A stretch of DNA of 64,000 bases, taken from positions 32,001 through 96,000 of IMG/VR virus record IMGVR_UViG_3300042566_000762, one strand, 5' to 3'. Of this stretch, positions 21,409-39,054 are shown piece after piece; the first letter of the stretch is position 1; each line of letters begins with the position of its first letter. The notes beneath the pieces were generated by a model. That model saw nothing but the letters and a program-made list of their open reading frames with translations, had not been told where the DNA came from and did not search any database. The DNA is from a virus. The position numbers were made by a program, and so were the translations under genes.

Positions 21409-21969
21409 TTAATTTTGGTAATACAATTCCGGATATTCTACTAATATATATACACCTTTGTTTTGTGTTGCATATTTGTAAGATAATTCTATATCGGTTG
21501 GTGTTTTTAAATCTAAAAATTCTATATTTTTACAAAGAGATTTAAATTCTTCTAAATAATTTCCTCTGTGTTGGTGACCAGGGTCTAATGGTTTGTCCGA
21601 ACCTTTACCCAATCTAATTAGAATGTGTGGACGTTTTCCGGTCATCAATTCGTATTTATCAATATGATTTACTAATTGATTGGTTGCTGATATTAAAAAA
21701 TCCCATCTTGGATAAAATGATATTACTAATTTATTTGTCATTGCCAATCCCAATGTCATACCCATTTGAGTTTCTTCCATTACTGGTAATTCAATCATTT
21801 TATCTTTTGAAACTTCACCCAATGTTGTACTCATTGGATTTCCTGCATAAAGAATTTGTTGGCCTATGAATATTGAATTATCCAAATCTGATAATTGATT
21901 CATAGCAGATGTCAATGCATCTTTGTATGGTGTATATTTTGGTGTGTTCATAATTAAAAGATAACCCAC
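21409..21969 (-). CDS. TPP-dependent enzyme, E1 beta/transketolase pyrimidine-binding domain (truncated)
   Basis: IELPVME..Q.G...GLA, DFLI.A.NQLVN, G.QH; true start may be the Met at ~21951. Confidence 0.8.
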   Translation of the reverse strand: MGYLLIMNTPKYTPYKDALTSAMNQLSDLDNSIFIGQQILYAGNPMSTTLGEVSKDKMIELPVMEETQMGMTLGLAMTNKLVISFYPRWDFLISATNQLVNHIDKYELMTGKRPHILIRLGKGSDKPLDPGHQHRGNYLEEFKSLCKNIEFLDLKTPTDIELSYKYATQNKGVYILVEYPELYYQN

Positions 21970-22592
21970 TTTCCACTTCCGTAGTGAGGGTATTTTGATT
22001 TATAAGTATAATGTATTACATCCGATGGAAGGTCTCTCTTTTCGTTCCACGTTGCTTCGGTTGGTGTGTTTGTTGAAATTCCATTATCTTCTACTATAAA
22101 ATATAAAGGTAAATTAAAGTTTCTTGCATATTTGTGAACTTCATAAAATATACCACTCTCAAAACTCATATCACCAATAAAACACCAAACCTTATCCTCT
22201 CCACCATCTTTTTTTATAGATAGTGCAATTCCTAATGCAATTGATAATGTTGAACCAACAATTGCAGATGAATAAAATTTAGCATCTATATCACACATTG
22301 TAATAGATTTACCATCTTTGATTAATTCGGTTGCATAATCGGCAGATATTCCTTTTAAAACCCAATGATAATGAGAACGCCACGTTGAGAATACCCAATC
22401 CGTTTCTTTAACTCTTTTAAATACTTCTATTAATTGTTCTTCGTTTCCGTTTGATAAATGTATTGGGCCTCTTATCTTTCCGGCCTCCCATAAATCAACG
22501 ATGTCCTGCTCAAACTTAATTAATTTCTCAGGTGTCCAACCAATTTCTATTTCATTTCTTACGATTGAATATTGTTCTAAATTTTGTATCAT
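21954..22592 (-). CDS. TPP-dependent enzyme, E1 alpha-like (short)
   Basis: IRGPIHLS.G.EE, STWRSH, SAIVG, FIGD...N(LP)..EDNG TPP motif. Confidence 0.85.
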   Translation of the reverse strand: MIQNLEQYSIVRNEIEIGWTPEKLIKFEQDIVDLWEAGKIRGPIHLSNGNEEQLIEVFKRVKETDWVFSTWRSHYHWVLKGISADYATELIKDGKSITMCDIDAKFYSSAIVGSTLSIALGIALSIKKDGGEDKVWCFIGDMSFESGIFYEVHKYARNFNLPLYFIVEDNGISTNTPTEATWNEKRDLPSDVIHYTYKSKYPHYGSGKWVIF

Positions 22593-22625
22593 TATCTATC
22601 TCTTTTTTGTAATATTGGATTTGTC
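22593..22625 (-). pseudogene. Remnant of rmlC 3' end (TNPILQKRDR*)
   Basis: Near-identical to 24590-24620. Confidence 0.75.
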
Positions 22626-22659
22626 TTTGTTTATTTAAACATATTTTTCAATGTTTAAC

Positions 22660-23259
22660 TTAAAGTATTGTTTTTTCGGTTTTACTAGGATGATATCCTA
22701 TATTATATTTATTACTTTTATCTAAAATATTTTTAAAATCTTCATCAATATAATTAATATTTAAATAATCAAATAATTCAGAGAAATTTCCATAAAATAA
22801 ATCTTCATAATAAAAAGAACGAAATAATGGGTCTTTTAATTCAAATAATACATTTTCCAAAGATACAAACACATCTTCCTTTTCTTTTATCATTTCTTCG
22901 GTTATGCCAGCTAAGTGATATTTTCTTTTGGTTTTATCTAAAAAATTTTTATTATGTTGTGCAGTAATAGAACTAATGACCTGTTCTCTTTTATTTTTTC
23001 TAGATATTAATAACACTTTATCAAAGTCATTTATAATTTTCTCTTTATTAATTTTTAGCAAGCTAAAATTACTTATATCACTTTTTACTAAAACATTTTC
23101 ATATTTGATACATTCTTCGTATTTTGTTTTTTTAATTCCAGTTTCTTTGTAATGAGTAAATGGTTGATTAAAATATTCATAATTGGAATTTTGTCTTAAA
23201 AAATACTCCGATATTGAATTAGTTCCACTACGTGGTATATATAATATTAATATTTTCAT
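22660..23259 (-). CDS. Sulfotransferase-like P-loop protein
   Basis: IPRSGTN PAPS-binding loop, R.N..EQ..S, YYEDL. Confidence 0.65.
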   Translation of the reverse strand: MKILILYIPRSGTNSISEYFLRQNSNYEYFNQPFTHYKETGIKKTKYEECIKYENVLVKSDISNFSLLKINKEKIINDFDKVLLISRKNKREQVISSITAQHNKNFLDKTKRKYHLAGITEEMIKEKEDVFVSLENVLFELKDPLFRSFYYEDLFYGNFSELFDYLNINYIDEDFKNILDKSNKYNIGYHPSKTEKTIL

Positions 23260-23408
23260 CTATCTCTTTTTTGCAATGTTGGTTTATCTGATGGCCGTTC
23301 CATTTGATATTCCGGGTCGTTCCATTTAACCACTCCTTGTTCATCTGCATCAACATAACCAAATTTTTTCGATGGAGTAATTTGAAACTCATCCCATTTA
23401 TTACTCAT
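23256..23408 (-). pseudogene. Internally deleted rmlC paralogue (50-aa mini-ORF)
   Basis: MSNKWDEFQITPSKKFG|YVDADEQGVVKWNDPEYQMERPSDKPTLQKRDR matches both termini of the RmlC at 24590-25135. Confidence 0.8.
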
Positions 23409-23863
23409 ATTATTGTTGTATTTTTTGATTTAAATAAATCATTATGTAGAAATCCAACTAATGTAAATCTTTTACCTACACAATTTTCTACTCTATGTGT
23501 TTCTTCTCCTGTAAAATATATCATAGTTCCTATTTTTGGTTTTATAGTTAGTTCATTAAATATCAATTCACCTCCCGTATATTTATCATTTAAAAATATA
23601 ACAAATGAATATGGGTTGATATGAGAATGTGTTGTTTTAACTTGTTCAATATTTTCATCGGTGTATTGTATTCTAAATTTCTTAAAATCACATTTTATAA
23701 ATTCAGGAATAACATTAACAACTTTTTCTAAATGTGGAATTAAATTTAATCCGTGAAAATGATAAATATTATCATATACAGAAATAACATTATTGTTATC
23801 CCATAAATTAAGTATCGAATTACATTGTACATTTGATATGTAATTATTTACAATCGTAATCAT
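23405..23863 (-). CDS. 2OG-Fe(II) oxygenase (prolyl-hydroxylase-like)
   Basis: HSH, IFLND.YTGGEL.F, PK.G..IYF, H.V...G.RFTLV. Confidence 0.8.
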   Translation of the reverse strand: MITIVNNYISNVQCNSILNLWDNNNVISVYDNIYHFHGLNLIPHLEKVVNVIPEFIKCDFKKFRIQYTDENIEQVKTTHSHINPYSFVIFLNDKYTGGELIFNELTIKPKIGTMIYFTGEETHRVENCVGKRFTLVGFLHNDLFKSKNTTII

Positions 23864-23881
23864 ATAATATTAACTATAATA

Positions 23882-24256
23882 TCATAGTAATTTTTTTTCT
23901 CTTGATTTCCAATACATCTTCCCATAACTGTGGCACAATTCATCACCCGCCTTTATGTTTTTTAATGAGAAAAATTCTATAATGATTGGTTTTTCTATGT
24001 TTATTAATCTCCAACGTATATTTGGTGTATCACTATGATTATAAATTGAACCATACCCCAATGGTAGTAAGGATTCTGTGTCAGTAAGACTGAAAAGATA
24101 ATCAATACCTGGATTAAATGGTTGAAGATATGTTTTAAGACTATAACAAGTTTCAACAATACTGCCTTCATCAATATCTTGACAAGCAAAAACTCCGAAA
24201 CCCATTATTTCATCTATGTATTTTACTTCTAATTCGATTTTATTTTTAATAATCAT
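23882..24256 (-). CDS. SET-domain protein-lysine methyltransferase
   Basis: GFGVFA..DI..G, YNHS..PN, I.AGDEL..SYG. Confidence 0.9.
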   Translation of the reverse strand: MIIKNKIELEVKYIDEIMGFGVFACQDIDEGSIVETCYSLKTYLQPFNPGIDYLFSLTDTESLLPLGYGSIYNHSDTPNIRWRLINIEKPIIIEFFSLKNIKAGDELCHSYGKMYWKSREKKLL

Positions 24257-24262
24257 ATGTCA

Positions 24263-24294
24263 TAAATATACGAAAAAAAGTTCATATTTCCAAA
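24263..24294 (-). promoter_or_regulatory. Bacteroidetes-type -33/-7 promoter upstream of SET gene
   Basis: - strand TTTG-N20-TATATTTA. Confidence 0.7.
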
Positions 24295-24409
24295 TTTATT
24301 AAAATCACATTTTATAAATTCAGGAATAATATTAACAACTTTTTATAAATGTGGAATTAAATTTTGTATTTGATATATAATTGTCTATAACCATAACCAT
24401 ATAATATTA
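24295..24409 (-). pseudogene. Deleted/frameshifted copy of the 2OG oxygenase 5' region
   Basis: 24299-24363 nearly equals 23682-23746 (a GAA>TAA change); start region MVMVIDNYISN vs MITIVNNYISN. Confidence 0.8.
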
Positions 24410-24413
24410 CATA

Positions 24414-24593
24414 TTATGTTTGATTTGCATAACCCAAAGGGAATCCATTTCTAAATTCTGCTCCCATTTTTGGAACTATCATTTGATATGCCATTATTAA
24501 TTCCTGTATACCATTATCCAAATTTACATGTGGTCTCCAACCTATTTCAATATCATTTCTAACTATTGAATATTGTTCTAAATTTTTTATCAT
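24414..24593 (-). pseudogene. Chimeric 59-aa mini-ORF: E1 alpha N-terminus fused to epimerase C-terminus
   Basis: MIKNLEQYSIVRNDIEIGW|RPHVNLDNGIQELIMAYQMIVPKMGAEFRNGFPLGYANQT; junction at shared GGTTGGA. Confidence 0.85.
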
Positions 24594-25135
24594 CTATCTC
24601 TTTTTTGTAATATTGGTGAATCCGTTGGCCATTCGATTTGAAATTCAGGGTCATTCCATTTTACAACACCTTGTGCGTTTTCTTCAACAAAATCACCTTC
24701 ATAAAATAAATTATAATGAAATACACAATCGGTTAATGCATAGTGTCCATTTGCAAATCCAGGTGGAACTAATATTTGGTCTCTGGTTTTTTCAGTAAGT
24801 AAATATGAATTCCAATCACCATATGTAGGTGATTCTTTTCTAACATCCAATACTACTAAAAATATATCACCGACCAAAGCTTGAACCAATTTCCAAGTCT
24901 TATTATCCCAATGCAATCCTCTCAATACACCTTTGTATGATTTTGAGAATCTACCATGTACTTTCAAATCTCCGTGCATAAAATTATGAACAGGATGTTC
25001 TTCCGGATGATATGTTGTCCAAATCTCTCCCCTATATTCTCTATATACCGATGGTGAAAATACTGGTACATCTTTACCAAATGGTTTTAAAAATGATACA
25101 TCTATATCATTCCATTTTTTATCTTTATAACTCAT
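24590..25135 (-). CDS. rmlC: dTDP-4-dehydrorhamnose 3,5-epimerase-like
   Basis: RG, S.S.KGVLRGLH, KLV....G.IF.V.LD.R..SPTYG.W, VPPGFANG, WNDP...I.WP. Confidence 0.85.
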   Translation of the reverse strand: MSYKDKKWNDIDVSFLKPFGKDVPVFSPSVYREYRGEIWTTYHPEEHPVHNFMHGDLKVHGRFSKSYKGVLRGLHWDNKTWKLVQALVGDIFLVVLDVRKESPTYGDWNSYLLTEKTRDQILVPPGFANGHYALTDCVFHYNLFYEGDFVEENAQGVVKWNDPEFQIEWPTDSPILQKRDR

Positions 25136-25968
25136 ATTAATTTATTTTTATGCGTATTAGTTAAGTATTTTGCTAATTCTTTTGCGTATTCAATATGTCC
25201 GAAATATCCAGGATGTAAATCTTCATATCCTGTTAATTCTCCTTTTAATTCATCTGTTATTGTTAGTTTATTTCTCAAACAATAATTGTAAATATCATCC
25301 GATTCCTGTGTGTTTGAAAATTTTATAATATCTTCTTTATCAAATGTAGTTGTTAAATATAACCAATTTTTTTGCATTAAAAATATTTTAATATTATTAA
25401 ATTTACAAAAAGAATATAATCCAGCTAATGCATATTCATCATTTTTTAAATTAGCTTGAAAATTAAAATGATTTTCGTGCCAATTTAAAAATATATCTTT
25501 ATATTCCAAATCTTTTTCTAAAATTTTAGGATTAAAATAATCTCTAGTGGCGCCGGCCATCTCGTAAATATCACCATCATTTTTTGAATTAACTATATAA
25601 TATTCGTTGGTTTTATTTAAGAATACATCACATCTACTAGGGTCAGGCTTATCTAATATAATAAAAAATTTATTTTTATTTTTCCAATTTTTTTCTATAA
25701 AATCATAAGTCATTCTAACTATTCTTTGAACACCTACTCCCGATTTAGCTTCGTTAATACATTTCACATTTATTAATTTAGATAATCTATATCCAAAATT
25801 AACTTCTTCTCTATTTTTCCAACTTACATTATGTAATTTTTTATATAACCTATGAACACCAATACCTCTGATATTCGGTTCTTCTAATCCACCACCTTCA
25901 CAATGCGAACTTCCGTTAACATAAAAAAATTGATATTTACTAAAATCCATACTATCCCAAATTTGCAT
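25132..25968 (-). CDS. SGNH/GDSL-like hydrolase or acyltransferase
   Basis: NGSSH.EG block I, INEA.SG, DLHPG. Confidence 0.6.
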   Translation of the reverse strand: MQIWDSMDFSKYQFFYVNGSSHCEGGGLEEPNIRGIGVHRLYKKLHNVSWKNREEVNFGYRLSKLINVKCINEAKSGVGVQRIVRMTYDFIEKNWKNKNKFFIILDKPDPSRCDVFLNKTNEYYIVNSKNDGDIYEMAGATRDYFNPKILEKDLEYKDIFLNWHENHFNFQANLKNDEYALAGLYSFCKFNNIKIFLMQKNWLYLTTTFDKEDIIKFSNTQESDDIYNYCLRNKLTITDELKGELTGYEDLHPGYFGHIEYAKELAKYLTNTHKNKLI

Positions 25969-26923
25969 ACCCTAAAGGAAATCCATTTCTAAATTCTGCA
26001 CTCATTTTGGGAACTATCATTTGATATGCCATTATTAATTCCTGTATACCATTATCCAAATTTACATGTGGTCTCCAACCGGTTTCTTCTATTTTTGAAT
26101 TTGATACAATATAGTTTCGTTTATCAGGGTCTTGATAATAATCATCGTATACTACTGCAAAATCTTTTACATATTTTTGTATTTTTTCCAATAATTCTTG
26201 TTTATTCAAATTTGCATCACTCAATCCAATATTAAAAACTTCTCCTTTATATCTTTCATATCTATCCAACATAAATGCAAATACGGATGCTACATCTCTA
26301 ATATGAATAAAATTTCTTTTAAATGTTTTTTCAAATACAACAATGTATTTATCGGTAATAGCTTTATAAACAAAATCATTTACTAATAAATCCGTTCTCA
26401 TTCTAGTTGAAACTCCAAATACGGTTGCTAATCTAAATACGATTGCATCAGTACAATTTCTTAAAAAATTTTCAGCTTCACATTTAGTTTGACCATAAAC
26501 CGATATAGGAGTGAGTGGAGATTCTTCATTACATTCCAATTCACCCGTTCCTAACCCATATCCACTATTTGTATTTGGATATAGAATTTTTTTATCTTTT
26601 CCGTTTGTAAATTTAACAATATTAACTATTTGTTGAAAGTTAATTTCTTTTGCAAGTTGTGGGTCTGCGTCGCATGCAGGAAACCCAACAATGGCTGCCA
26701 ATGGAATTATTACATCTGCTCCATCACAAAGTTTTTCTAATAATGTTTCATTACGGACATCACCATAAATAAATTTAAATTTAGAAGTATATGTATATCC
26801 CAATAAAGATGTTTGATTAAATAATAATTTATCTAATACCGTTACATTGTGGCCATCTTCCAATAATCGTTTTGTTATAACCGAACCTAAATATCCTGCA
26901 CCACCGGTAATGAAAACTTTCAT
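25952..26923 (-). CDS. NAD-dependent NDP-sugar epimerase/reductase (extended SDR)
   Basis: ITGGAGYLGS, YGQTK (YxxxK), RLATVFG. Confidence 0.9.
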   Translation of the reverse strand: MKVFITGGAGYLGSVITKRLLEDGHNVTVLDKLLFNQTSLLGYTYTSKFKFIYGDVRNETLLEKLCDGADVIIPLAAIVGFPACDADPQLAKEINFQQIVNIVKFTNGKDKKILYPNTNSGYGLGTGELECNEESPLTPISVYGQTKCEAENFLRNCTDAIVFRLATVFGVSTRMRTDLLVNDFVYKAITDKYIVVFEKTFKRNFIHIRDVASVFAFMLDRYERYKGEVFNIGLSDANLNKQELLEKIQKYVKDFAVVYDDYYQDPDKRNYIVSNSKIEETGWRPHVNLDNGIQELIMAYQMIVPKMSAEFRNGFPLGYANLG

Positions 26924-27702
26924 AACTTATTTTTAATATAAATATAAAATTCTTTTGAAAAATTGTCATGCCATAATTCTCCTGGGTGGTGATTATCTCT
27001 AGCTTTTAAATCATTTTTATAACAATTTATTGGGTCAAAAAATGTATCATAATTTATAGTAGAATTTAATTCCGATTTCAATTCTTTAAAAACATCGTAA
27101 TAATATCCAGCTATTGTATGAAATATTTTTATATTGTATAATTTTGCAATTACTTCTACGAATTTGTAAGCTTCCCAAAATGTCATTAAATCCTGATAAT
27201 CATTTCTTAATTGAACAAACATCAAATCTTCATCTTCGTTTTTCCAAACTAAATCCATATCATTGGCCATTCTAAATCCACCTATTTTTTTAAAAGAACC
27301 ATTTTCTTTAATATAATCTCTCCTACTAAAACCAGGCCACATTATCAAAACCATATCCGGTATAAATTCGGATGAAATTATTTTATATAATGTTTTCGCT
27401 ATAAATGAAGTCGATGCACCATACATTCCATAATTAAAAACTTTACCAAATTGTTCACCAATAAGATTTGGCCATATTTTTTCATTTTTAACACCAATAC
27501 CCATAGTCCAAGAACAACCCAATGTTAATATGTTATAATCGGATTTATCTTTTAATGGGTTAGAACGATACCCATGTTCATTCATTTTATACCAAATTGT
27601 ATTATCATCATTTGTATCACTTGCTAATGTTGGTAATATTTTATTTTTATATTGTTCAAATACAAAGACATCATCGGATAATATTTTTTCAAAATCTTTC
27701 AT
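26920..27702 (-). CDS. SGNH-like protein
   Basis: LGCSWT.G.GV, N.G..GAS, RDNHHPG. Confidence 0.65.
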   Translation of the reverse strand: MKDFEKILSDDVFVFEQYKNKILPTLASDTNDDNTIWYKMNEHGYRSNPLKDKSDYNILTLGCSWTMGIGVKNEKIWPNLIGEQFGKVFNYGMYGASTSFIAKTLYKIISSEFIPDMVLIMWPGFSRRDYIKENGSFKKIGGFRMANDMDLVWKNEDEDLMFVQLRNDYQDLMTFWEAYKFVEVIAKLYNIKIFHTIAGYYYDVFKELKSELNSTINYDTFFDPINCYKNDLKARDNHHPGELWHDNFSKEFYIYIKNKL

Positions 27703-29144
27703 TAAATAATTAAGTTATTTTGAATAGAATACAATTCGTTTATAAAATCTGCACCATATAATTTTGTGTTATTATATTCTAAAAATAATTTTTGATTATG
27801 TAGTAATATATCTTCCATTTTCCAATACCATTCATGCAATTCTTCATTTGACATTGAACACAATCTTTTAATTTCATTGTGTATAGCTATCATTCTATCT
27901 GCTGTCGACTCAATTGTATCATATGTCTCATCTATGAATCCGTCAAATGTTTTAAATCCTAAGTCTCTTAACAATTGTAAACCCCCTGCAAATGTTACAA
28001 ATATAAATGGTTGAAAATTAACAATAGGTTTAAATATTTTTTCAGTAAGAGATTTATGTTCACCATCTACCAATGTTTCAAATAATATTTCAAAATAAGA
28101 ATCCAAATGTGGTTTAAAATCAACATCAGTCCATGCATTTATTTCTCCGTAAGTATTTCCTGTTTCACTTTGTAAATTATGTGGAAACATCGTATATGCT
28201 GATTTAATTTTGTCTGCATCTATATCATGTAATTTATACTCAGATATTAAATGCCTTAAACTGGGTTCATTTAATCCGTTTGTTGATAAAAATGACCAAT
28301 CTCCATATTGTAATAAATCATCATTTATCATTCTATACATAACTGCCAACCTATGTAATCTGGCATTTCGCATTTTCATTAAGTATTTGTTTGGTCTTAT
28401 TGTATTTTTACTGTTATTAAAATCATCTATATTCATTGATAATTTTAAATTATTTTTTATGCCATCGGAATAAAACCAAGAACCATGGTCTAAACAAAAT
28501 GGTAAATTTCTAACTTCGTATTTTCTATCTTGTGGTTTAAACCAATTTTCATACAATTGTCTGGCATTAAAACTATTGACAACAACAAATATTGATGTTG
28601 ATGGTAATCCACTATTTTTTAAACATTCGGTTAATCCGTTATGCATGTTTAAATCTAAAAAAGGTTCCATTGTATAATCTATGTAAATAATTCCTTTTCT
28701 TTTTTTTACTTTTTCCAAAACTTCTCTTGAAATAAATTTCCAAAAATACGAACCATTTAATTTGTCAGCTATACCATTTTGAACGCCTGTGAATTGTGTA
28801 AATATTGGATTTGGTCTAATTGGATATATAAATTTTTTATTTGTATTTCTTTCAAATAAAACCGAAGATTCTTTATAATCTAAATGTTCTCTATAAACAT
28901 TGGCTTGGAAAAAATATCCATGTGCTGTATTGGGATTATGACCCATTGAATCTTCAAACATATCTTTCATAAAAATTTGATTACCTCTATCGGTTGTAGA
29001 TGCTTCAAATATTGTAGAATGCAATGTTCTATTTGTGTGGACAGACGATATATAATTTATGATACCCAGTTGGGTATCTAATGCATTTGGTAATATAAAA
29101 GTAGGAAATATGTAATCAAATACAAATGTTAATTGTTTTTTCAT
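27702..29144 (-). CDS. Putative glycosyltransferase (GT-B, GT10-like C-terminus)
   Basis: R.HR, SYFEI..ET, LTEK.FKPI...QPFI, LRDLGFKTF..FIDE.YD. Confidence 0.55.
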   Translation of the reverse strand: MKKQLTFVFDYIFPTFILPNALDTQLGIINYISSVHTNRTLHSTIFEASTTDRGNQIFMKDMFEDSMGHNPNTAHGYFFQANVYREHLDYKESSVLFERNTNKKFIYPIRPNPIFTQFTGVQNGIADKLNGSYFWKFISREVLEKVKKRKGIIYIDYTMEPFLDLNMHNGLTECLKNSGLPSTSIFVVVNSFNARQLYENWFKPQDRKYEVRNLPFCLDHGSWFYSDGIKNNLKLSMNIDDFNNSKNTIRPNKYLMKMRNARLHRLAVMYRMINDDLLQYGDWSFLSTNGLNEPSLRHLISEYKLHDIDADKIKSAYTMFPHNLQSETGNTYGEINAWTDVDFKPHLDSYFEILFETLVDGEHKSLTEKIFKPIVNFQPFIFVTFAGGLQLLRDLGFKTFDGFIDETYDTIESTADRMIAIHNEIKRLCSMSNEELHEWYWKMEDILLHNQKLFLEYNNTKLYGADFINELYSIQNNLII

Positions 29145-29146
29145 AA

Positions 29147-29935
29147 TTAATAAAATAATTTAGGGCCTAACCAAAAGGCTTTATTAAATGGTTCTAAAAT
29201 GATTTTAGAGTAAATTTCATGTTGTAATTTAGTTGATTTATTATTAACGGCTTTTAGTGATAACTCATATCTTAGTTTAGATTCTAATGTATCGTATTCA
29301 GGAAAAGTTTCCTTTAAATATTGGTAATGCATCGTTTGAGTTGGGTGTGTATCATAGTCATTTTGGTCATCATATTTTACATATTCTAACTGATTTGGGT
29401 AGTTTTTACGTCTCCAATCATCCATAGATTCTTTCACATCTAACATATCATAAATTGAATCAAAATAATATTGTATTAATTTATTATCTTTATATTCATT
29501 TGATAATGAATTATTATTCATAGATGTCAAAAATGTGTGTTTAATATTTTTTAGTGTTAATATTTCTTTAATAGTTTTAATTGCAATAAATGATTGATAA
29601 ACTGACCATTCACTTGACCACATATTTTCTAAAAACTCATTTGATATGTCAGGATTGAAATAAATATTTCCACCATGCACCCAGTTATTTTTATTTCTAA
29701 AAGAAAGCCTATCCATATTAGTAAACATAACAATTACATAATCCGTTTGATTTAAATTTAAATTATTATTGACTTCTATAAATCTGTTCATTATAAAAGT
29801 ATTGGATGCACCACCTTGTCCAAAATTCATATATTCTTCAAAATTTGCACCCATATAATCGGCCCATGTTGCAGTAAAATATCCAGTATAACTGCAACCA
29901 AATGTTATTAGTCTTTTATTATTAAATGTAGTCAT
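29147..29935 (-). CDS. SGNH-like protein
   Basis: FGCSYT, TWAD, N.G.GGASN, DTHP. Confidence 0.65.
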   Translation of the reverse strand: MTTFNNKRLITFGCSYTGYFTATWADYMGANFEEYMNFGQGGASNTFIMNRFIEVNNNLNLNQTDYVIVMFTNMDRLSFRNKNNWVHGGNIYFNPDISNEFLENMWSSEWSVYQSFIAIKTIKEILTLKNIKHTFLTSMNNNSLSNEYKDNKLIQYYFDSIYDMLDVKESMDDWRRKNYPNQLEYVKYDDQNDYDTHPTQTMHYQYLKETFPEYDTLESKLRYELSLKAVNNKSTKLQHEIYSKIILEPFNKAFWLGPKLFY

Positions 29936-30713
29936 TATTTTTCAATTTATCTAATATTATTTTGTATACTATTTCATGTCCTATATTTGATGTGTGCATT
30001 GTATTCATATCATCAGGATATTGATGGGAAAGTTTCATAAAATCTACATTGGCCAAATTTTTCATAGGAATATATTTATTAAATTCAACCAAATCATATG
30101 TTAAAAATATATGCTTAATACCTTTATTTTTTAATAATGAATGTGCTAAATTCATCATACCAATATCATATTGTCTTTGAATATTATCATCAAATATTTC
30201 TAAATAATATTCTTTTAATAATTTCATTCTAGTTTTACTTTCAGTATCAAATCTACTATAATAATTGGATTTCCAATTTGGATTGTCCATACAATTATCC
30301 ACATAATCAATTATACTATTAAAATTTTCAGTTAATAATTTACCATTATAATCACCATCTAATTGCATTGGATTTGGTATATTATATTTGTAACTATCTT
30401 TACCAAATGGTGGATATTGGTGATAATTCACATTGGTATTCTTAATATCTCCATTAAATTCATAATTTTCAGGAAACCATTCCGTTCGATTATATGTTGT
30501 AACACCGATGCACATTAAATCAATATTTTTATAATTTTCAATTGCATATTTTACTTGTAAAAATATAGAAAAATTAGAACTAGACCCTTTAGCTAAATTT
30601 ATTAAATTTAAATTTAATTTATCAGATAATAGTGAACCATATGGTTCTTTTTCTAAATTATGACAACCAATTCCTATATTAAAAGAATCTCCACAAATAA
30701 CTAAATTATTCAT
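29922..30713 (-). CDS. SGNH-like protein
   Basis: CGDSF..G, NLA.GSSSN, C-terminal H.S..GH. Confidence 0.65.
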   Translation of the reverse strand: MNNLVICGDSFNIGIGCHNLEKEPYGSLLSDKLNLNLINLAKGSSSNFSIFLQVKYAIENYKNIDLMCIGVTTYNRTEWFPENYEFNGDIKNTNVNYHQYPPFGKDSYKYNIPNPMQLDGDYNGKLLTENFNSIIDYVDNCMDNPNWKSNYYSRFDTESKTRMKLLKEYYLEIFDDNIQRQYDIGMMNLAHSLLKNKGIKHIFLTYDLVEFNKYIPMKNLANVDFMKLSHQYPDDMNTMHTSNIGHEIVYKIILDKLKNNDYI

Positions 30714-31587
30714 ATATAAGTTTATTTTGTTTTATATAATCATATAATTCATTTGCCCATATCAAATGCGATTCTTCTGATGGATGCCAACCTGAATATG
30801 GGTTATTTATTGCATTTTGTTCCATAAAAGATTTAAATGTATTATTTTTTTTATTCTTTTTATAAAATCTAATAGAATCAATACTTTCCCACAATGATAC
30901 ATATTCTTGTTTATAGTATTCTCTTTCAAAATTTTTGTTAGTATGATATGGATGATTTTGTAAATGTAATTTTTGCAATTCCAATTTTATATCAATGTCT
31001 TTCCAAACTTCAATAGATGTTCCAACATTTTGATAAAAGGAATTAAATGATAACCATTTTATATTATTTGCTTTACAAAAATTTTCAAATTGTAAAATAT
31101 TCATAATATGTCTTGGTAAATATTCTTCTTTATTCCAAAGATATTCAACATAATAATTCCAAAATTCTTTTTGATTTTCTTTTTGTAGATTTTGAATGGA
31201 TGGCCAGATTCTCATATTGTAATTCAAATCTTCATCTTTATACCAAAAAGAATTTCGTTCAGGAGATGACCAACCAACTAATAAAAATAAATTATCAGTT
31301 GGGATATTTTTTACAATATAATTTGAGGTAACATATGTTATTATTCTGTTTAATATGGTATTATTATCATCTGCAGACCAACTTAAATTTATTACATCTG
31401 CGTCTAATAATTTACCTAAATGAGTTGAAAATATTTTAGATAATCTATATTCGTTATTTTCATTAATCCAATCATATTCTCCGGCATGAGTATTTGTTGG
31501 TTTATTTTTAAGTATATTTGGGTCTAATATTTCTGAACCAAATACCCAGCTATCCCCATCACAAATAATTTTTAATTTCTTTTCCAT
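30706..31587 (-). CDS. SGNH-like protein
   Basis: DGDSW.FG.E, N.S....N, GWS.PER, HP.EESH..WA. Confidence 0.65.
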   Translation of the reverse strand: MEKKLKIICDGDSWVFGSEILDPNILKNKPTNTHAGEYDWINENNEYRLSKIFSTHLGKLLDADVINLSWSADDNNTILNRIITYVTSNYIVKNIPTDNLFLLVGWSSPERNSFWYKDEDLNYNMRIWPSIQNLQKENQKEFWNYYVEYLWNKEEYLPRHIMNILQFENFCKANNIKWLSFNSFYQNVGTSIEVWKDIDIKLELQKLHLQNHPYHTNKNFEREYYKQEYVSLWESIDSIRFYKKNKKNNTFKSFMEQNAINNPYSGWHPSEESHLIWANELYDYIKQNKLIYE

Positions 31588-32273
31588 TATATTAATTTTG
31601 CTTTAAACGCCGTTTCAGTATCGTGATATATTTTATTAAGTATTATTTTAGAAAAATCTCTATGTCCCTTATATGACCAATGTAAATCTTCTATTTCACC
31701 ATTGGTACAAGTTTTTATATTTTCATAAACTGTCCATAATTGTTCTACTTCCCAAAAAACCAATTTATCTATTTTTTTATTTTTTAAATATTTTTTAATA
31801 AAATCAAATCTTAAATTTTGTCTTTTTTTAGTATTTTCATCGCAAAGTAAAGATAAAAAATATTCTATATGTTCTATTTCATTTTTATTAAAATTCAATT
31901 GTTTTAATAATGCCGATGAATTTAAACTAATTGTATTAAATTTATAAATTATATCATTTTTAATATTAAATTCATTATTTGGAATATCAAATCTACTATA
32001 AAAAGTTTTGCCTATTATTACAATATCATCTTTAGAAATCAAATCTATTTTTTCAATTATATTATCAAGTATTCTATCATTTGAAAGGCCGCCATAACCA
32101 AAATTAACTAATTTCAAATTTAATTCATTGGCAACGATATCTGGCCAATGCATGTCACCATCTATTCTATATTTTTGAGAATATTCACATTCTTCATGTG
32201 TTTTATTAAATGTGAACGAATCACCAAAAGTAAATAATTTTTTCATATTAAGGTTGGCCAAAGTTATCACCAT
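31587..32273 (-). CDS. SGNH-like protein
   Basis: FGDSFT, WP, N.G.GG.SN, DLHWS.KGH; likely start at MKKLF (~32246). Confidence 0.65.
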   Translation of the reverse strand: MVITLANLNMKKLFTFGDSFTFNKTHEECEYSQKYRIDGDMHWPDIVANELNLKLVNFGYGGLSNDRILDNIIEKIDLISKDDIVIIGKTFYSRFDIPNNEFNIKNDIIYKFNTISLNSSALLKQLNFNKNEIEHIEYFLSLLCDENTKKRQNLRFDFIKKYLKNKKIDKLVFWEVEQLWTVYENIKTCTNGEIEDLHWSYKGHRDFSKIILNKIYHDTETAFKAKLI

Positions 32274-33114
32274 ACCAATCTACGGAAATTTGATGTATTT
32301 CTTTCCAATTTTTGACACCATCTAATTGTTTATCCTCAGCTTCTTTTCTGACAATATAGTATGGTGTAGTAACTTCTCCTGTCGGATATATTTGCCAATT
32401 TATTAAATGTCTATATAATGTAGTACCGGGTCCTAAATTGAATATTGTTTCATCCATAATTTCGTTTGAATTTAATTTCAACTTATCTGCAGTTACAACT
32501 TTGTGTTGCCATCTAAATGCATTTCCAATAATGTCCATTGTGGGTGAATCTGAATAAAAAAATACATCGTCAAATGAAATTGTATTAAATTCTTTTGGGA
32601 ATCTTGCTAAAAATTCGGCCGATGAATAAGCTGAAAATGGTTGGGTTGGATGAACATAAAATTTATTAGTCATAAAACCAAATCGTGGAAATGGGTCTAA
32701 TGAAAAGTTTAAATCAAATCTACTTTTTATTACTAAATCATATACAAAATCATTTTCAATTTCATATTTTCTTTTTAATTGAACAACTTTCATCAAACTA
32801 TAAAAAAGTGGAGACCATACATTATTAAAATCTGCTGCGTTGTATTTTTCATATTCCATTAAAACCGGGTTGAATGCGTTTTGTATTTCGGTTTCGGTTA
32901 TCGGGTCTAATAAATAATCATCACCTTCCCATCTTTGTTTTGTTTTATCTCTATAACTATTTGTATCCCAAGTATGAACAAAATAATCAACTTCTACTTT
33001 TTGTTTTGTAAAATCATTTACCTTTATATTGAAATAATTTAATATATTTTGTATACCTACTTTGAAAGTTCTGGATTGGCCGGTCAGTAAAATTGCAACT
33101 TTAAATGGTTTCAT
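32248..33114 (-). CDS. Putative glycosyltransferase-like protein (K.A....G..R family)
   Basis: KVAILLTGQSR, DYFVHTW, YDLVIKSRFD, D.FFY. Confidence 0.55.
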   Translation of the reverse strand: MKPFKVAILLTGQSRTFKVGIQNILNYFNIKVNDFTKQKVEVDYFVHTWDTNSYRDKTKQRWEGDDYLLDPITETEIQNAFNPVLMEYEKYNAADFNNVWSPLFYSLMKVVQLKRKYEIENDFVYDLVIKSRFDLNFSLDPFPRFGFMTNKFYVHPTQPFSAYSSAEFLARFPKEFNTISFDDVFFYSDSPTMDIIGNAFRWQHKVVTADKLKLNSNEIMDETIFNLGPGTTLYRHLINWQIYPTGEVTTPYYIVRKEAEDKQLDGVKNWKEIHQISVDWYGDNFGQP

Positions 33115-33116
33115 AT

Positions 33117-33872
33117 TTAAATAAAATTTATTTTTTTATCATTTAAAATATTTAATCTATGCATTTTCATATCAAACATTCTCAGAAAATAACCAAACAT
33201 ATATTCTGGTGATATATTTTTTGGAAACTGTTCACTTTTTAATAATGGTATCATATTATAAATTGAACACAATACATCGAATGTTTGTGAATTTGCAAAG
33301 AATAAATTAAAATTAACAACATCATATGGAAATTCAAATGTCTTTATAACATTGGCTGGAAAAACCATTCTGTCGTTTGGTATTGTAAATTTGTCTAATA
33401 TAGTATTAGTTATAGTATCGTTCATCATTACATCACTTGATAATCTGAAGCAAACATCGTATTCAAAATTGTGTTTTAATTCATATTCTCTTTTAATATG
33501 AGATGCCATCATCATACTATAAAATTCAGGTGCATGCTTTAATAATAAAGATTTATGATGTGTGTTACCTGCATGTTGATATTTTAATTCATTTAATGTA
33601 TCCGCTCTACTTATATATTTTTCAAAGTTTTCAATTTTAATATCTTTGGGTCTTACAAAGTTTTGAAAATCTAACAAAACCGAATTATCTATCATTTTGA
33701 TTTCACTATGGTCATTGATATTAAAATCCCAGGTATGAACAAAAATATCAAATGATGCATCTGTATTAAAATATTTAGATGAATTTAATATTTTATAAAA
33801 TAAATTATTCCATGTAGAATATTTATCTAACCAATTTTTTAAATTACCTGATATACAAACTGCTATTTTCAT
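33117..33872 (-). CDS. Putative glycosyltransferase-like protein, paralogue of 32248-33114
   Basis: KIAVCISG, DIFVHTW, KREYE....F.YD...R..D. Confidence 0.55.
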   Translation of the reverse strand: MKIAVCISGNLKNWLDKYSTWNNLFYKILNSSKYFNTDASFDIFVHTWDFNINDHSEIKMIDNSVLLDFQNFVRPKDIKIENFEKYISRADTLNELKYQHAGNTHHKSLLLKHAPEFYSMMMASHIKREYELKHNFEYDVCFRLSSDVMMNDTITNTILDKFTIPNDRMVFPANVIKTFEFPYDVVNFNLFFANSQTFDVLCSIYNMIPLLKSEQFPKNISPEYMFGYFLRMFDMKMHRLNILNDKKINFI

Positions 33873-34633: not shown

Positions 34634-36046
34634 TTATATTGTTTTACAAAAGTTATAAAATTCTTCTAATTCAGGGAATGTTTTTACAAAATCAGTTCCT
34701 CTTCTTTTATCATGTTCAGTAAAAAATTTGTAAAAATCACTTCGATTTCTCATTTGTTGCTGTGCATCTTGTGGTGAAATCATCCAATCGTATATTCTTT
34801 TAATTTTTTGAACTTCAACATCACTATATCCAATATGTGTATGGTCAAATGATGGTGATGCATAATATGTAATCAATTTAACTTGGTCTACAATATATTT
34901 AGAAAAATCATAAGGAAGAATTTGTACGGTTTGATGTAATGGAAATCTCAAATACGATGAATCCAAAAATGTTGCTGAGTTCCAATATCTATCGGTGCTA
35001 GCATATTCATCTTTTAATTTATAGACTTCATGTATTAATTTATTGTAATTAAATAAACTTAATGCATTATAAGTTGACATAAATGTAACATTTGTTCTAT
35101 TTAATGAACTCAATATTTTATTTACATTATCCCAAAACCTATTAAATTCTAAACCATTACGAATATATTCAGCTTGGGGGCCCCATGTATCACACGATGT
35201 AAATATTACAATTTCTTTAACTCTACCTTCATCTTCAATTTTTTTAATTTTTTGAATAAACTTATTTATCAATTCATCTGGTGCACCTAAATTTGAATTA
35301 ATTGCTAACTTCAATTCTCTATTTGGGTTTTCTTGTTCTAAAATAAAATCCAATACTCCCCAAGTATCTTTTGACAATAAAGGTTCACCACCAGTAATTC
35401 TAAAGGTATGTAAATCCCTATATAATTCAGGCCACCATTTCCAAAATGCGTCTACATATGGATTTGGTTTACTATGTGGAATCGGAAATTTATTTTCAGC
35501 TTTTAACCAATCATCTGAATTAAACTTGTTAGATGTTGGGTATCCACCGAATTTACCAATTTCTTCTACCCATTTAGAACTATATGCGGGCCCGCAATAT
35601 GAACATTTAAAATTACATGCATTACTAAATGAAACTTCTACATATTTTGGATTATAATCATCTCTCCAATTAGAATTAAAAATTTCTTCTTTAAATGGTA
35701 AAGACCAACTTTCACCTGATTTAAAAATTCTATCACTAAATCTATCGGAATTATCTTCTACATTCCAACAATAGTCACACTCTTCAGGTCTTGCACCACT
35801 TAACATTTCTTTTCTGCGAAGTTTTTTATATCTTGTATTATGAAGTGCCGATGGATTACGTTCAATTTCTTTTTCAGAAATTTTATGAGTTCTAGGGTGG
35901 TGACATGAGTGGTTATGACCACTTTGTAATTGTAAAGTTACTTGTGTCCATTTTGCTAAACACATACCAGTTCCTACTTCATTTAATTCGTCTTTTAGTT
36001 TTGTGTAAAACGGATTATCAAAATTTATTTTTTCTTCTTCTGCCAT
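34634..36046 (-). CDS. Radical SAM protein with N-terminal Twitch/SPASM-like Cys cluster
   Basis: CNFKCSYC, TGGEPL; N-terminal CLAKW...SCHH...CDYCW. Confidence 0.85.
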   Translation of the reverse strand: MAEEEKINFDNPFYTKLKDELNEVGTGMCLAKWTQVTLQLQSGHNHSCHHPRTHKISEKEIERNPSALHNTRYKKLRRKEMLSGARPEECDYCWNVEDNSDRFSDRIFKSGESWSLPFKEEIFNSNWRDDYNPKYVEVSFSNACNFKCSYCGPAYSSKWVEEIGKFGGYPTSNKFNSDDWLKAENKFPIPHSKPNPYVDAFWKWWPELYRDLHTFRITGGEPLLSKDTWGVLDFILEQENPNRELKLAINSNLGAPDELINKFIQKIKKIEDEGRVKEIVIFTSCDTWGPQAEYIRNGLEFNRFWDNVNKILSSLNRTNVTFMSTYNALSLFNYNKLIHEVYKLKDEYASTDRYWNSATFLDSSYLRFPLHQTVQILPYDFSKYIVDQVKLITYYASPSFDHTHIGYSDVEVQKIKRIYDWMISPQDAQQQMRNRSDFYKFFTEHDKRRGTDFVKTFPELEEFYNFCKTI

Positions 36047-36048: not shown

Positions 36049-37455
36049 TTATACTTTAACATTTATTAATTTGTGTCTGCCGAATATAGTATCCGTATTA
36101 AGATATTCATATTTCATATTATTGATACCATCTTTTTTATAATCAACGTTTCCTTGTTGCATTTCTAATATATATCTTCTCTCATTTTTTGCAGTTGTCT
36201 CACCTTTTGACCACTTATCTATACCACCTTCGGTTATTAGTCCTTCCGTTGGATGTGGTAAACATTTGAATTTTCCATTTTTTCTATAAGGTAATATTGT
36301 ATGTGGTATTTCTATTTTTTCTTTTGTTAATTCAATTCTTCTCATTTTACCAAATTCCAAATTCATAGTGAATATATCTAATATTAAATTATCTTGTGGT
36401 GTTTCTTTGTGTAAATTTTTTATTTCTTCTGGATTTAAACACCTATCCCACATTTTTATATCAGCGATACCACCTTTAAAAAAAACTTCAGTTGGAGATT
36501 TTGAATACCCAATGGTAAATGGTTCCATACCATATCGTTTCAATGGTTCAGTATATTTTAATGGTGATTGTGTTCCGGTTCCCAATCTTGCATCACTTTC
36601 TTGTCCATTTAAATAAAAATGTATTTTTTTATTTTTAGCGTCTACTGAAAGTGTAACCCAACTCCATTGATTTTCATACCTCTTAATCCATTGATATAAA
36701 TGCCCTTTCATTCTATCCCAAAGTTGTATAGTATATGCTCTACTATTATTGAAAGATAATCCCCAATCGTATCCAGGTTTTCTGAATATTGGATACTCCA
36801 TAAATCGCCTATCAGTATCTCCTATTAAGTAAATGGGAACTTTTTCAATCTGTTGTTCAGCTTTTACTAATATAGAAATTGTGTGTGAGTTTGAAAGACA
36901 ATCTTTTTGTTCTTTAGATGGTTCAAATTCAATTTTAGAATTTATTCCATTAAAATTAGCTACATACTTTTCTTCATTATAATCTAATTTTGTTTCTTCT
37001 GCATATCCTTCCATTACACATCTCCAAAATAAATCATCATCTTCCATACCCCAATCCCAATATTCATTTGAGTAACCATTGGTTTTTTCAACTTGTTCTT
37101 TTGAAAATACAACTGCACCTCCAAAATATTCTTGATATTTTAATTGATAATCGGATTGTGAAATACGAACTGCAATGTGTTGGGGATTATCATTAGGAAA
37201 TGAATAATCACAACTATCATCTTCAGGAACCATATCTATATCATGCCAAACGATGTAATCACATCCATCATCAAACGCATGTTTAGCGGCAATGTTTTTC
37301 ATTAAACCTCTATTAAAAAGTTTATCATCGCATTGGTGAGCAAGGTATATAGTGTGTTCGATTCCTCTTTCTTCTAAGAATTTTGTAATATGGGGAACAA
37401 ATATATGCATATGCTCCTCTCTATTTCTATATGGTACACATACTCCTAATTTCAT
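36049..37455 (-). CDS. GT7 (beta-1,4-galactosyltransferase-like) with inserted LamG domain
   Basis: VPYRNR, FNRG, HDID, YFGG, NGY.N.YW.WG.EDDD; LamG F.G.I.D...W.R.L. Confidence 0.8.
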   Translation of the reverse strand: MKLGVCVPYRNREEHMHIFVPHITKFLEERGIEHTIYLAHQCDDKLFNRGLMKNIAAKHAFDDGCDYIVWHDIDMVPEDDSCDYSFPNDNPQHIAVRISQSDYQLKYQEYFGGAVVFSKEQVEKTNGYSNEYWDWGMEDDDLFWRCVMEGYAEETKLDYNEEKYVANFNGINSKIEFEPSKEQKDCLSNSHTISILVKAEQQIEKVPIYLIGDTDRRFMEYPIFRKPGYDWGLSFNNSRAYTIQLWDRMKGHLYQWIKRYENQWSWVTLSVDAKNKKIHFYLNGQESDARLGTGTQSPLKYTEPLKRYGMEPFTIGYSKSPTEVFFKGGIADIKMWDRCLNPEEIKNLHKETPQDNLILDIFTMNLEFGKMRRIELTKEKIEIPHTILPYRKNGKFKCLPHPTEGLITEGGIDKWSKGETTAKNERRYILEMQQGNVDYKKDGINNMKYEYLNTDTIFGRHKLINVKV

Positions 37456-38873
37456 ATTGATACAATTATATGTGTTTGATTTTTAACATTTGCATTACTT
37501 AATTCTTTAAATACACAATTATTTAATCCATCTTCTTTAGTTGACTTATGTCCTCTACTAACTTCATTAAAATATCTAACTTGATTATATCTGGTTGTAA
37601 TATCTTTCCATGCACCATCTACATATCCATTTTCGGAGTGTGGCATTAATTCAAATTTACATTCTCTTCTATGTGGTATTGTTAATATTTTATAATCATC
37701 TTTTTCAAACGGAACTATTTCACATTCATTTATAATTCCATCATTACCATTACCACTTAAATCAATCATCTTATAACCTTTAATAAATTTTGCATCAAAG
37801 TATAATTTTAAATTATCACAAGATGTATAATTACCAAAATTGGATGTCAATCCAAAATATTTATTTTCAGATATTTCTTTTATTTCAATTTCATTTAACA
37901 CATTTCCAAATATTGCAAAAGAATCCATTAAACCATTAAAGAATTTTGGATTATCATTTCTATTTGGGTTACCCGCACCTAAATATATTTTACTATGTTT
38001 TCTATATGAATATAAATCTTTTGTATAATTTTTAGTTCCAATTAAAATACCATCTTGATACATTTTTAATTGTTTATTATCTGCATCAATTGTGATACAT
38101 ATTATAGTTTTATAGTTTGGTTTGATATCTGAGTTTAAATAAATAATATTTTCTTCTTCGTCATATATTTCAAAATTATATCTTGCATAAGAATTATAGT
38201 TAATAGACATATCAACTCCTGCAATAGTAAATACTGAATAAGTATCATCGTATTTATCAATATCACAATAGATATATTCAGGAGAAAAGGATATAAAAAT
38301 AGTTGTATTTGTATTTGGGTCTATTACATTATTTGTTTTTACATATGCACTTTTTCCGTTGAATTTAAGCGCAGCTGAATTACTTCCCAATAATTTTATT
38401 TTCTTTTCGTATAAATCAACATTATATTGTCTGCATCTAAAAAGTAAATCATTATCTTCATATCCCCATCCCCAATATTCATTGGGATAACCATTTATAG
38501 TTTCAAATATATTTGTTGGAAATAATGTTACTCCACCAAAATATTCATCAAATACTATTCTATTAAATGTAGGGTCTTCGGATATAAATTTTGTAGATAA
38601 TTGTATAGGGTGTGGTGAGTATGAATAATCAACATCAATTGGAAGCATATCTATATCGTGAAATACAACATAATCACAATTTAATTTTTTAGAATATATA
38701 AATCCAATATTTAATAGTTTTCCTCTATTAAATGTTTTGGCCTCATCTTGTTCTACAACAATTAATTCATAATCTATATTTTTCCCACTTAGATAATTCG
38801 ATATAAACTTTTTAAATATTAATAATTGTTTATCCCTATCTCTATATGGAACTATAATACCTAATTTATGCAT
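37452..38873 (-). CDS. GT7 (beta-1,4-galactosyltransferase-like) with inserted LamG domain
   Basis: VPYRDR, FNRGKLLN.G, FHDID, YFGG, NGYPN.YWGWG.ED.D; LamG F.G.MD...DLSGNGNDG. Confidence 0.8.
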   Translation of the reverse strand: MHKLGIIVPYRDRDKQLLIFKKFISNYLSGKNIDYELIVVEQDEAKTFNRGKLLNIGFIYSKKLNCDYVVFHDIDMLPIDVDYSYSPHPIQLSTKFISEDPTFNRIVFDEYFGGVTLFPTNIFETINGYPNEYWGWGYEDNDLLFRCRQYNVDLYEKKIKLLGSNSAALKFNGKSAYVKTNNVIDPNTNTTIFISFSPEYIYCDIDKYDDTYSVFTIAGVDMSINYNSYARYNFEIYDEEENIIYLNSDIKPNYKTIICITIDADNKQLKMYQDGILIGTKNYTKDLYSYRKHSKIYLGAGNPNRNDNPKFFNGLMDSFAIFGNVLNEIEIKEISENKYFGLTSNFGNYTSCDNLKLYFDAKFIKGYKMIDLSGNGNDGIINECEIVPFEKDDYKILTIPHRRECKFELMPHSENGYVDGAWKDITTRYNQVRYFNEVSRGHKSTKEDGLNNCVFKELSNANVKNQTHIIVSI

Positions 38874-39054
38874 CTTTGGATTTTTCCTTAGCTGCAGCTA
38901 GTTTATGGAATTCAGATAAATAATATTGAGTTCTTTGACTCCATTCATCTTTATCAATTTCTTCAAACCAAATTGTAAGTGCATCTAATGAGTTTGCAAT
39001 TTTCTCTAAAGCTTTAATTTTTCTAGTTTCTAACAACAATTCTTCTTCTGTCAT
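38866..39054 (-). CDS. Small hypothetical protein
   Basis: Helical 62-aa ORF directly after a promoter. Confidence 0.6.
   Translation of the reverse strand: MTEEELLLETRKIKALEKIANSLDALTIWFEEIDKDEWSQRTQYYLSEFHKLAAAKEKSKDA

Follow-up and report, generated by a model that had tools for sequence, protein, structure and literature searches.

Class I PDZ ligands take the form X-[S/T]-X-hydrophobic-COOH. The ClpX C-motif 2, of the MuA type, has a stretch rich in Lys and Arg, then a small and an aliphatic residue, at the free C-terminus. In phage T4 the proteins gp43, gp55 and gp33 carry C-terminal motifs that bind the sliding clamp, gp45 (PMC2988020), and the T4 alpha-glucosyltransferase co-purifies with gp45 (PMC13216743). 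Here we describe a short C-terminal peptide (the tag) on unrelated enzymes encoded in an AT-rich island of an uncultured phage. The window, meaning the whole stretch of DNA that was analysed, comprises 64,000 nucleotides (bases 32001-96000 of the 106,461-bp viral contig IMGVR_UViG_3300042566_000762; G+C content (GC) 31%). An initial annotation of this DNA had proposed that several island enzymes of unrelated fold end in K-x(1-3)-[LIF]-[LI]-COOH and that this ending recruits interchangeable enzymes to a common site.

The sequences compared here show that the tag is a real motif under protein-level selection. It stands on a disordered linker of variable length and has been joined to enzymes of many unrelated folds. 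Within the island it singles out the variable accessory enzymes; it is absent from the sugar-nucleotide enzymes and essentially absent from the constant core encoded alongside. C-terminal docking or targeting peptides are known as a kind, but full-text searches of the literature found neither this tag nor the ligase/Hint module that accompanies it in relatives.

The source virus is, on the evidence of its major capsid protein, an uncultured, distant T4-like myovirus, because this protein is 53% identical to its counterparts in Flavobacterium phage immuto and Microcystis phage Mel-JY01. CheckV puts the contig at 56% completeness, and its minus strand carries all but one of the 93 open reading frames (ORFs). 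The island consists of 14 ORFs in a stretch of 22-28% GC and sits among late structural genes on the same strand. Within the 14 ORFs Pfam recognises a 2OG-Fe(II) oxygenase, a SET domain, an RmlC-like epimerase, an NAD-dependent epimerase, DUF6071 and, weakly, a GDSL lipase. In the flanks it recognises a thiamine pyrophosphate (TPP)-dependent E1 pair, a radical SAM enzyme, two GT7-LamG glycosyltransferases, a GT2-like enzyme and a methyltransferase. Pfam, PHROGs and NCBIfam gave nothing useful for the unnamed island proteins.

Results

A terminal motif confined to the island

All eight C-termini quoted in the initial annotation are present in the sequence, on minus-strand ORFs. Six of them fit the proposed pattern; KNKL and NNLII fall outside it. 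The pattern is enriched in the island: it ends 6 of its 14 ORFs, against none of the 79 ORFs elsewhere in the contig (Fisher 4e-6). A looser form, [KN]-x(0-2)-[LIVMF]-[LIVM]-COOH, takes in 7/14 island ORFs and again 0/79 elsewhere in the contig. Two tag-like endings fall outside this looser form as well, KNKL at 26920 and that of the DUF6071 gene, in which the motif precedes two further residues. At internal sites of the island proteins the pattern occurs at a rate of 0.0106 (1.06%), which gives a binomial probability of 4e-9. When the last 6-15 residues were shuffled the mean number of hits was 0.3-0.65, and in 0 of 5000 shuffles were six hits reached. The order of the residues therefore matters and not only the terminal composition, since shuffled termini fail to reproduce the tag.

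The annotation had cautioned that AT-rich codons favour the residues concerned. This does not explain the tag. Across 91 loci from IMG/VR, from related and unrelated phages, the ORFs with a GC below 28% bear the tag in 18 of 43 cases in the related loci versus 0 of 60 in the unrelated phages. The internal rate of the pattern is about 1.2-1.3% in both groups. The codons of the tag vary in the related loci: Thr is written ACT, ACA, ACC or ACG, Ser TCA or AGT, Leu TTA or CTT, and Ile ATT, ATA or ATC. Both Leu-Ile and Ile-Leu orders and all three stop codons are seen. The tag precedes overlapping starts, abutting starts and intergenic gaps alike, and closely packed genes outside the island lack it. 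Because codons, stop codons and gene junctions vary in this way, selection must act on the peptide.

Several trivial origins of the motif were considered and rejected. AT-rich codon bias is ruled out by the zero count in equally AT-rich ORFs of unrelated phages. A constraint from the start of the next gene, or from ATGA overlaps, is ruled out by the untagged packed genes outside the island and by tags that stand before gaps. A nucleotide element or recombination linker is ruled out by the variation at third positions, in the Ser codon class, in the Leu/Ile order and in the stops. Paralogy is ruled out as well; BLASTP links only two weak pairs within the island, and the tails stand on non-homologous linkers.

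In the consensus derived from these sequences a Lys or Asn lies among the three residues before the last two, and the third-last residue is often Ser/Thr or Lys. The final pair is aliphatic (Leu/Ile, then Ile/Leu/Val) and bears the free carboxylate. With the last eight residues removed, 177 unique tagged ORFs fall into 51 BLAST families, 18 of which have at least two members. These ORFs lack phylogenetic independence; the loose pattern has an internal rate of 3-5%, and some of the singleton families will be chance matches to it. The claim that unrelated folds share the tag is borne out by the sulfotransferase fold, 2OG, SET and GDSL/SGNH proteins of the window, to which relatives add radical SAM and Asp/Asn hydroxylase enzymes.

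A further sample of genes came from relatives that carry a gene for an ATP-grasp-like domain, a Hint region and a Cys-rich peptide. This gene is present in loci L005/L109, L089, L090, L104 and L105. The copies share the N-terminal domain and a Hint region that ends in an invariant His-Asn, and a hypervariable Cys-rich tail follows the Hint region in 5 of the 6 aligned (all but L090). The neighbours of the gene in five other phages, picked by position alone, are tagged in 25 of 28 ORFs. A scoring matrix trained solely on those 28 neighbour ORFs was then applied to the window proteins. It gives p=0.002 for the sulfotransferase-like and 2OG proteins and p=0.012 for the 278-aa protein. The third-last residue is mostly Ser/Thr in the 28-ORF training set, and Lys is preferred in the glycan-type families. 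A conserved tagged protein of about 98 aa, without a family name, adjoins the ATP-grasp/Hint gene in five phages and has no homologue in this contig (Table 1).

The tagged enzymes and their homologues

The positions of all features are given in Table 1. The fold names of the initial annotation were in part upheld: the sulfotransferase is supported by AlphaFold2 (AF2) and Foldseek, and the 2OG and SET enzymes by Pfam. The proteins encoded at 27702 and 33117, labelled GT-like, received no Pfam, PHROG or NCBIfam name. The SGNH label holds for the protein at 31587 (a weak GDSL match of its own, and PF00657 on homologues), is reached for 25132 only through DUF6071 on one homologue, and is unsupported for 26920.

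Table 1. Genes and gene remnants of the island, its flanks and one protein of relatives (positions are those of the window unless a locus is named)
Feature	Position	Strand	C-terminus and basis
TPP-dependent E1 pair	beta-like 21409-21951, alpha-like 21954-22592	-	untagged; Pfam Transket_pyr and E1_dh
Sulfotransferase-like, 199 aa	22660..23259	-	ends EKTIL; tag K-T-I-L, last four codons 22663-22674
RmlC-like second-gene remnant, internally deleted, 48-aa ORF	23260..23407	-	translation and blastn against L088
2OG-Fe(II) oxygenase, 152 aa	23405..23863	-	tail N-T-T-I-I at 23408-23422; Pfam PF13640, 6e-8
SET-domain methyltransferase, 124 aa	23882..24256	-	tail K-K-L-L at 23885-23896; Pfam PF00856, 4e-12
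Second epimerase 3'-end remnant	24397..24543	-	83% nucleotide identity to L088 4328-4473; upstream of SET
RmlC-like dTDP-sugar epimerase	24590..25135	-	untagged; Pfam PF00908, 9e-34; QKRDR end kept in relatives
DUF6071/SGNH-like, 278 aa	25132..25968	-	tail K-N-K-L-I at 25135-25149
NAD-dependent epimerase/dehydratase	25952..26923	-	untagged; Pfam PF01370, 9e-34; end kept in relatives
260-aa protein, no family name	26920..27702	-	near-tag K-N-K-L, single terminal aliphatic; membership uncertain
480-aa phage-only protein	27702..29144	-	tail N-N-L-I-I at 27705-27719
DUF6071 enzyme, 293 aa	30706..31587	-	N-K-L-I then Y-E, so not terminal; Pfam PF19547
SGNH/GDSL-like, 228 aa	31587..32273	-	tail K-A-K-L-I at 31590-31604
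251-aa phage-only protein	33117..33872	-	tail K-I-N-F-I at 33120-33134; Atlas label 'capsular polysaccharide biosynthesis'
Core radical SAM	34634-36046	-	Pfam
Core GT7-LamG enzymes, two	36049-37455 and 37452-38873	-	Pfam
Core 62-aa ORF, helical hairpin	38866-39054	-	AF2 fold
Core GT2-like	39103-39951	-	Pfam
Core Methyltransf_24	39973-40731	-	Pfam
Tagged protein of relatives, about 98 aa	L104 1021-1317, L105 3675-3971, L005 4675-4959, L089 7003-7302, L106 1401-1694

The AF2 model of the sulfotransferase-like protein has a predicted local distance difference test (pLDDT) score of 91 overall and below 50 at residues 195-199. That the last five residues are left disordered is the mark of a short linear motif on a flexible tether. 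The top Foldseek matches are 3'-phosphoadenosine-5'-phosphosulfate (PAPS) sulfotransferases; Pfam gives none. Among 113 full-length homologues, 92 end in [KN]-[TS]-aliphatic-aliphatic, including members that are 28-35% identical. The protein has no match among isolate phages. In the 2OG family the tag is found in 34/39 of the nearest representatives (clusters at 50% identity), behind linkers that cannot be aligned, and in 12/90 of the more distant proteins. The closest SET orthologue, in L106 (68% identity), also ends in KKLL and lies within a run of tagged genes, adjoining the end of a Cys-rich ORF. More distant SET homologues are untagged. Overall, the tag is kept at 28-50% identity while the linker before it diverges in sequence and length.

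The families with SGNH-like members show how the tag is attached. In the 278-aa family, 67 of 110 homologues are tagged, and the tag ends an extension of approximately 13-57 residues past the last conserved helix; of those without the extension 1/16 is tagged. The 228-aa family is tagged in 49 of 105 homologues, mostly as K-[LI]-[LI]. Its members that stop at the last helix are untagged (0/22), and 11 of the 12 with the longest tails are tagged. In both families most members with the longest extensions carry the tag. Untagged SGNH-like homologues show another recurring end, ...Y-E-COOH (also ...N-N-G and ...N-N-E).

Four other island proteins have orthologues with tag-like ends. Those of the 260-aa protein end in KNKL, NSKL, KDKI or SKTL, and those of the 293-aa DUF6071 enzyme in YKLL, NNLL or NKIINE. 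Orthologues of the 480-aa protein (49-85% identity) end in NNIIL, TKIM, NKLI or NNLI, and the form N/K-N/K-aliphatic-aliphatic is retained among them. The orthologue of the 251-aa protein in L002 (52% identity) ends in K-L-N-L-I; its Atlas clusters are phage-only, and a scan of viral contigs yielded no further relatives.

Variable enzymes and a constant core

The distribution of the tag was counted in 80 loci (L227-L306) that were fetched with the 62-aa core protein, in contigs of up to 335 kb. Tagged ORFs, counted as unique ORFs that are not phylogenetically independent across loci, make up 60/207 (29%) of the variable region, 0/47 of the sugar-nucleotide enzymes (epimerases, RmlC-like and E1), 8/357 of the core and 21/314 of the fibre side. 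By Fisher's test the variable region differs from the sugar-nucleotide enzymes at 1.5e-6, from the core at 7e-21 and from the fibre side at 1e-11. The E1 pair has conserved C-termini of its own, unlike the tag.

The order of the core in these 80 loci is essentially invariant: methyltransferase, GT2-like, 62-aa protein, GT7-LamG, GT7-LamG and radical SAM. The block comes directly after large structural-type genes and before the changing set of enzymes. In every locus the 62-aa gene has the first GT7-LamG gene on one side and, on the other, the GT2-like gene or, in some loci, an extra GT7-LamG copy. Its product keeps 70-83% identity in records where that of the neighbouring enzymes is 36-61%, and it has 15 invariant columns between variable N- and C-terminal tails. 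Relatives number 143 in IMG/VR, and none was found in 50,697 isolate phage records. The AF2 model consists of two long helices (pLDDT 93); this hairpin belongs to no Pfam family, and Foldseek found no matching fold in the PDB.

Seven related, tag-bearing records were also taken whole and compared with the contig proteins. Ten contig proteins have homologues in 7/7 of them: the tagged 480-aa protein, the six core proteins, a carbamoyltransferase, a DUF2061 membrane protein and a cytidylyltransferase-like protein. The last three are encoded at window-relative 69406-73264, beyond the window. In relatives these three genes, with an adenosine 5'-phosphosulfate (APS) kinase gene, lie directly upstream of the ATP-grasp/Hint gene; there is no APS kinase in this contig. 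The site that the ATP-grasp/Hint gene takes in relatives, after the DUF2061 and cytidylyltransferase-like genes, is occupied by other genes here. Relatives G009 and G010 have both the glycan module and the ATP-grasp/Hint gene, 9-60 kb apart. Because these two share the glycan module and have the gene, its absence here may reflect the missing 44% of the genome.

Two features of the surrounding DNA were observed in addition. Between the island and the next structural genes, at 45780-50327 on the minus strand, are encoded a Mre11/Rad50-like fusion of 1047 aa (a metallophosphatase joined to an SMC-type ATPase), a small Toprim protein and a T7-type endonuclease I. A recurrent motif of the ATATTTAT(A) type stands in many intergenic gaps before structural genes and resembles a late-promoter element; examples are found downstream of window positions 11000, 14020, 39103, 50669, 54540 and 59829.

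Traces of cassette exchange

A recombinant patch spans 22600-24590. Its order is an epimerase 3'-end remnant, SET, 2OG, a deleted RmlC-like remnant and the sulfotransferase-like gene. The RmlC-like remnant lies directly upstream of the sulfotransferase-like gene and overlaps its start. Approximately 29 nt that are contiguous in L088 (4445-4473) flank the SET-2OG insert on both sides, and L086-L088, which lack the insert, have the sulfotransferase-like gene immediately after RmlC. This duplication and the insert-free relatives are direct evidence that tagged genes move as cassettes. The interchangeability that had been suggested thus has a physical insertion trace, in addition to the presence of the tag on swappable enzymes.

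Discussion

We propose, with moderate confidence, that the tail is a docking label for one common partner of the phage lineage. A pocket of the partner would receive the terminal aliphatic pair and the carboxylate, and an acidic rim on it would be contacted by the lysine or lysines. Any newly acquired enzyme that bears the tail would in this way be brought to the same macromolecular substrate. This substrate is probably a fibre-type protein of the virion whose gene lies immediately upstream; in relatives it would probably include the Cys-rich peptide made by the ATP-grasp/Hint gene as well. As for the partner, the likeliest candidates belong to the invariant core, namely the 62-aa hairpin or the LamG domains carried by the two GT7 enzymes, or else it is the substrate itself. 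The 62-aa hairpin is a candidate common partner only. A more specific version, plug-and-play recruitment, has a label of 4-6 residues attach any captured enzyme to one phage-encoded receptor that holds the substrate. We put this forward tentatively, as somewhat less likely than not. Such a receptor might be the 62-aa hairpin or the core LamG domains, holding the fibre protein or a self-released Cys-rich peptide.

The proposal made in the initial annotation, of a docking or targeting tag on interchangeable enzymes, is partly supported: the selected motif, the unrelated folds and the variable enzymes are borne out, but no receptor was found, so that a signal for degradation or for packaging would account for the sequences almost as well. 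Other observations weigh against docking too. PDZ_2 (PF13180) is absent from five related, incomplete records. Lineage may explain why the tag, the core and the 62-aa protein occur together. Fewer than a third of the variable-region ORFs (29%) are tagged, and the counts of unique ORFs lack phylogenetic independence. With the matrix derived from other phages, the remaining tails claimed in the window reach only p~0.05, and KNKL 0.08. The ATP-grasp/Hint gene has no homologue in this 56%-complete contig (tblastn and genome search).

The best-surviving alternative is a degradation tag, a C-terminus read by ClpXP, FtsH, Lon or a phage protease for the timed removal of accessory enzymes. The terminal position on a disordered linker suits it, as does the failure of the PDZ_2 search of five related records and of the comparison of seven records to yield a phage-encoded receptor. 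ClpX reads MuA-type C-termini that are basic and then aliphatic, and non-polar C-termini destabilise proteins in E. coli. A degron nevertheless leaves unaccounted for the sparing of sugar-nucleotide enzymes in the same operon (0/47) and of the core (8/357), and the retention of Ser/Thr as the third-last residue in some families (92/113) points to a reader of greater specificity. We consider it unlikely, and favour docking over a general degron because the exchangeable enzymes, which must act on a macromolecule, are tagged and the core and the enzymes of small soluble precursors are spared. A recruitment label predicts this split, since enzymes that work on a macromolecule would be the only ones in need of recruiting.

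The tail could instead bind the inner face of the capsid or another part of the virion, so that the enzymes would be packaged into the particle or carried with it, in the manner of encapsulin cargo peptides and their HK97-fold shell. A C-terminal peptide common to unrelated enzymes, a module placed among late structural genes on the same strand and a capsid protein of the T4/HK97 kind are all in keeping with such loading. T4-type internal proteins, however, use an N-terminal signal; the tag differs in sequence from encapsulin cargo peptides, and the packaging of a dozen enzymes that tailor glycans or peptides has no obvious use. Loading into the virion is in our judgement quite improbable.

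A still less probable role is that of a reactive handle, in which the C-terminal carboxylate or a lysine is a substrate of the ATP-grasp ligase and the enzymes are joined to the peptide or to each other. Tagged genes of relatives surround the ATP-grasp-like/Hint/Cys-rich ORF, and some ATP-grasp enzymes act on protein C-termini (RimK, tubulin-tyrosine ligase). Yet this contig and its relative G003 have tagged genes and no such ligase in the available sequence, and enzymes of the glycan module are tagged in G009 and G010 even though the ligase gene is 9-60 kb away.

It is highly unlikely that the tail is a peripheral membrane anchor that holds enzymes by its lysines and aliphatic pair at the inner membrane, the site of lipid-linked glycan assembly. 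The basic and hydrophobic composition and the glycan-related look of many tagged enzymes speak for an anchor, but two hydrophobic residues are too few to form an amphipathic helix, the tag also occurs on SET, 2OG and Asp/Asn hydroxylase-type enzymes, and the preference for Ser/Thr is unaccounted for. The view that the tail has no function and stems from AT codon bias, overlap with the next gene, descent from paralogues or post-hoc choice of the pattern can draw on the 22-28% GC of the island, its tight packing (several stops overlap the next start codon) and some weak paralogues, but it has next to nothing left in its favour given the 0/60 in equally AT-rich unrelated ORFs, the 0/79 in the equally packed rest of the contig, the failure of shuffled termini, residues that stay while codons vary, tags before gaps and a tag kept in homologue sets that played no part in the definition of the pattern.

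If plug-and-play recruitment is true, the label would explain the exchange of dozens of unrelated enzyme families in the island. As an address, the tag would offer pathway engineering a minimal, portable means of directing any chosen enzyme to a single substrate within a bacterium, and it would explain the diversity of virion or peptide decoration in large aquatic phages by cassette swapping. The tag is also a handle for annotation; dozens of unnamed phage-only families could be grouped by their last residues as tailoring enzymes of one system. The split between tagged variable enzymes and untagged core and precursor enzymes narrows the search for a receptor to a handful of genes.

Comparison with known systems

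The clamp-binding motifs of T4 offer the nearest phage parallel. There too, short interchangeable C-terminal peptides on flexible linkers bring unrelated proteins to one hub, a 'toolbelt', and a DNA-modifying enzyme is found on the same gp45 hub. The T4 motifs are hydrophobic and acidic (PMC2988020), whereas the tag is basic or polar and then aliphatic. A replisome-clamp motif was considered separately and ruled out; in the relative G004 (212 kb) the DNA polymerase is untagged, and the tail of a protein resembling single-stranded DNA-binding protein (SSB) is acidic and ends in Pro-Phe.

Encapsulin cargo peptides are likewise C-terminal, common to unrelated enzymes and read by one partner with a phage-capsid fold. 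Their consensus is unlike the tag, and the tagged proteins here are tailoring enzymes in the late operon of a real phage. The tails of the sulfotransferase-like and 2OG proteins fit the form of class I PDZ ligands, with an aliphatic last residue and a Ser/Thr two before it. The SGNH-like families differ in having Lys at that position; Ser/Thr occupies the PDZ -2 position in 92/113 sulfotransferase-like proteins and in 6/110 and 2/105 of the SGNH-like ones. The search for a PDZ reader with PF13180 gave no match in the five related, incomplete records; it did not extend to other PDZ models or to host proteins. The ClpX C-motif 2 resembles the tag in its basic-then-aliphatic free C-terminus. It marks proteins for unfolding or degradation and not for recruitment, and the tagging of variable enzymes only is not expected of a ClpX signal.

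A different likeness is to the pathways of ribosomally synthesised and post-translationally modified peptides (RiPPs). In these, many unrelated tailoring enzymes are sent to one substrate by a shared recognition step, and radical SAM, hydroxylase, methyltransferase and sulfotransferase enzymes are clustered as they are here. The shared peptide of the present system is on the enzymes and not on the substrate, and no leader or recognition element was identified. An address borne by the enzyme would, if true, invert the logic of the RiPPs.

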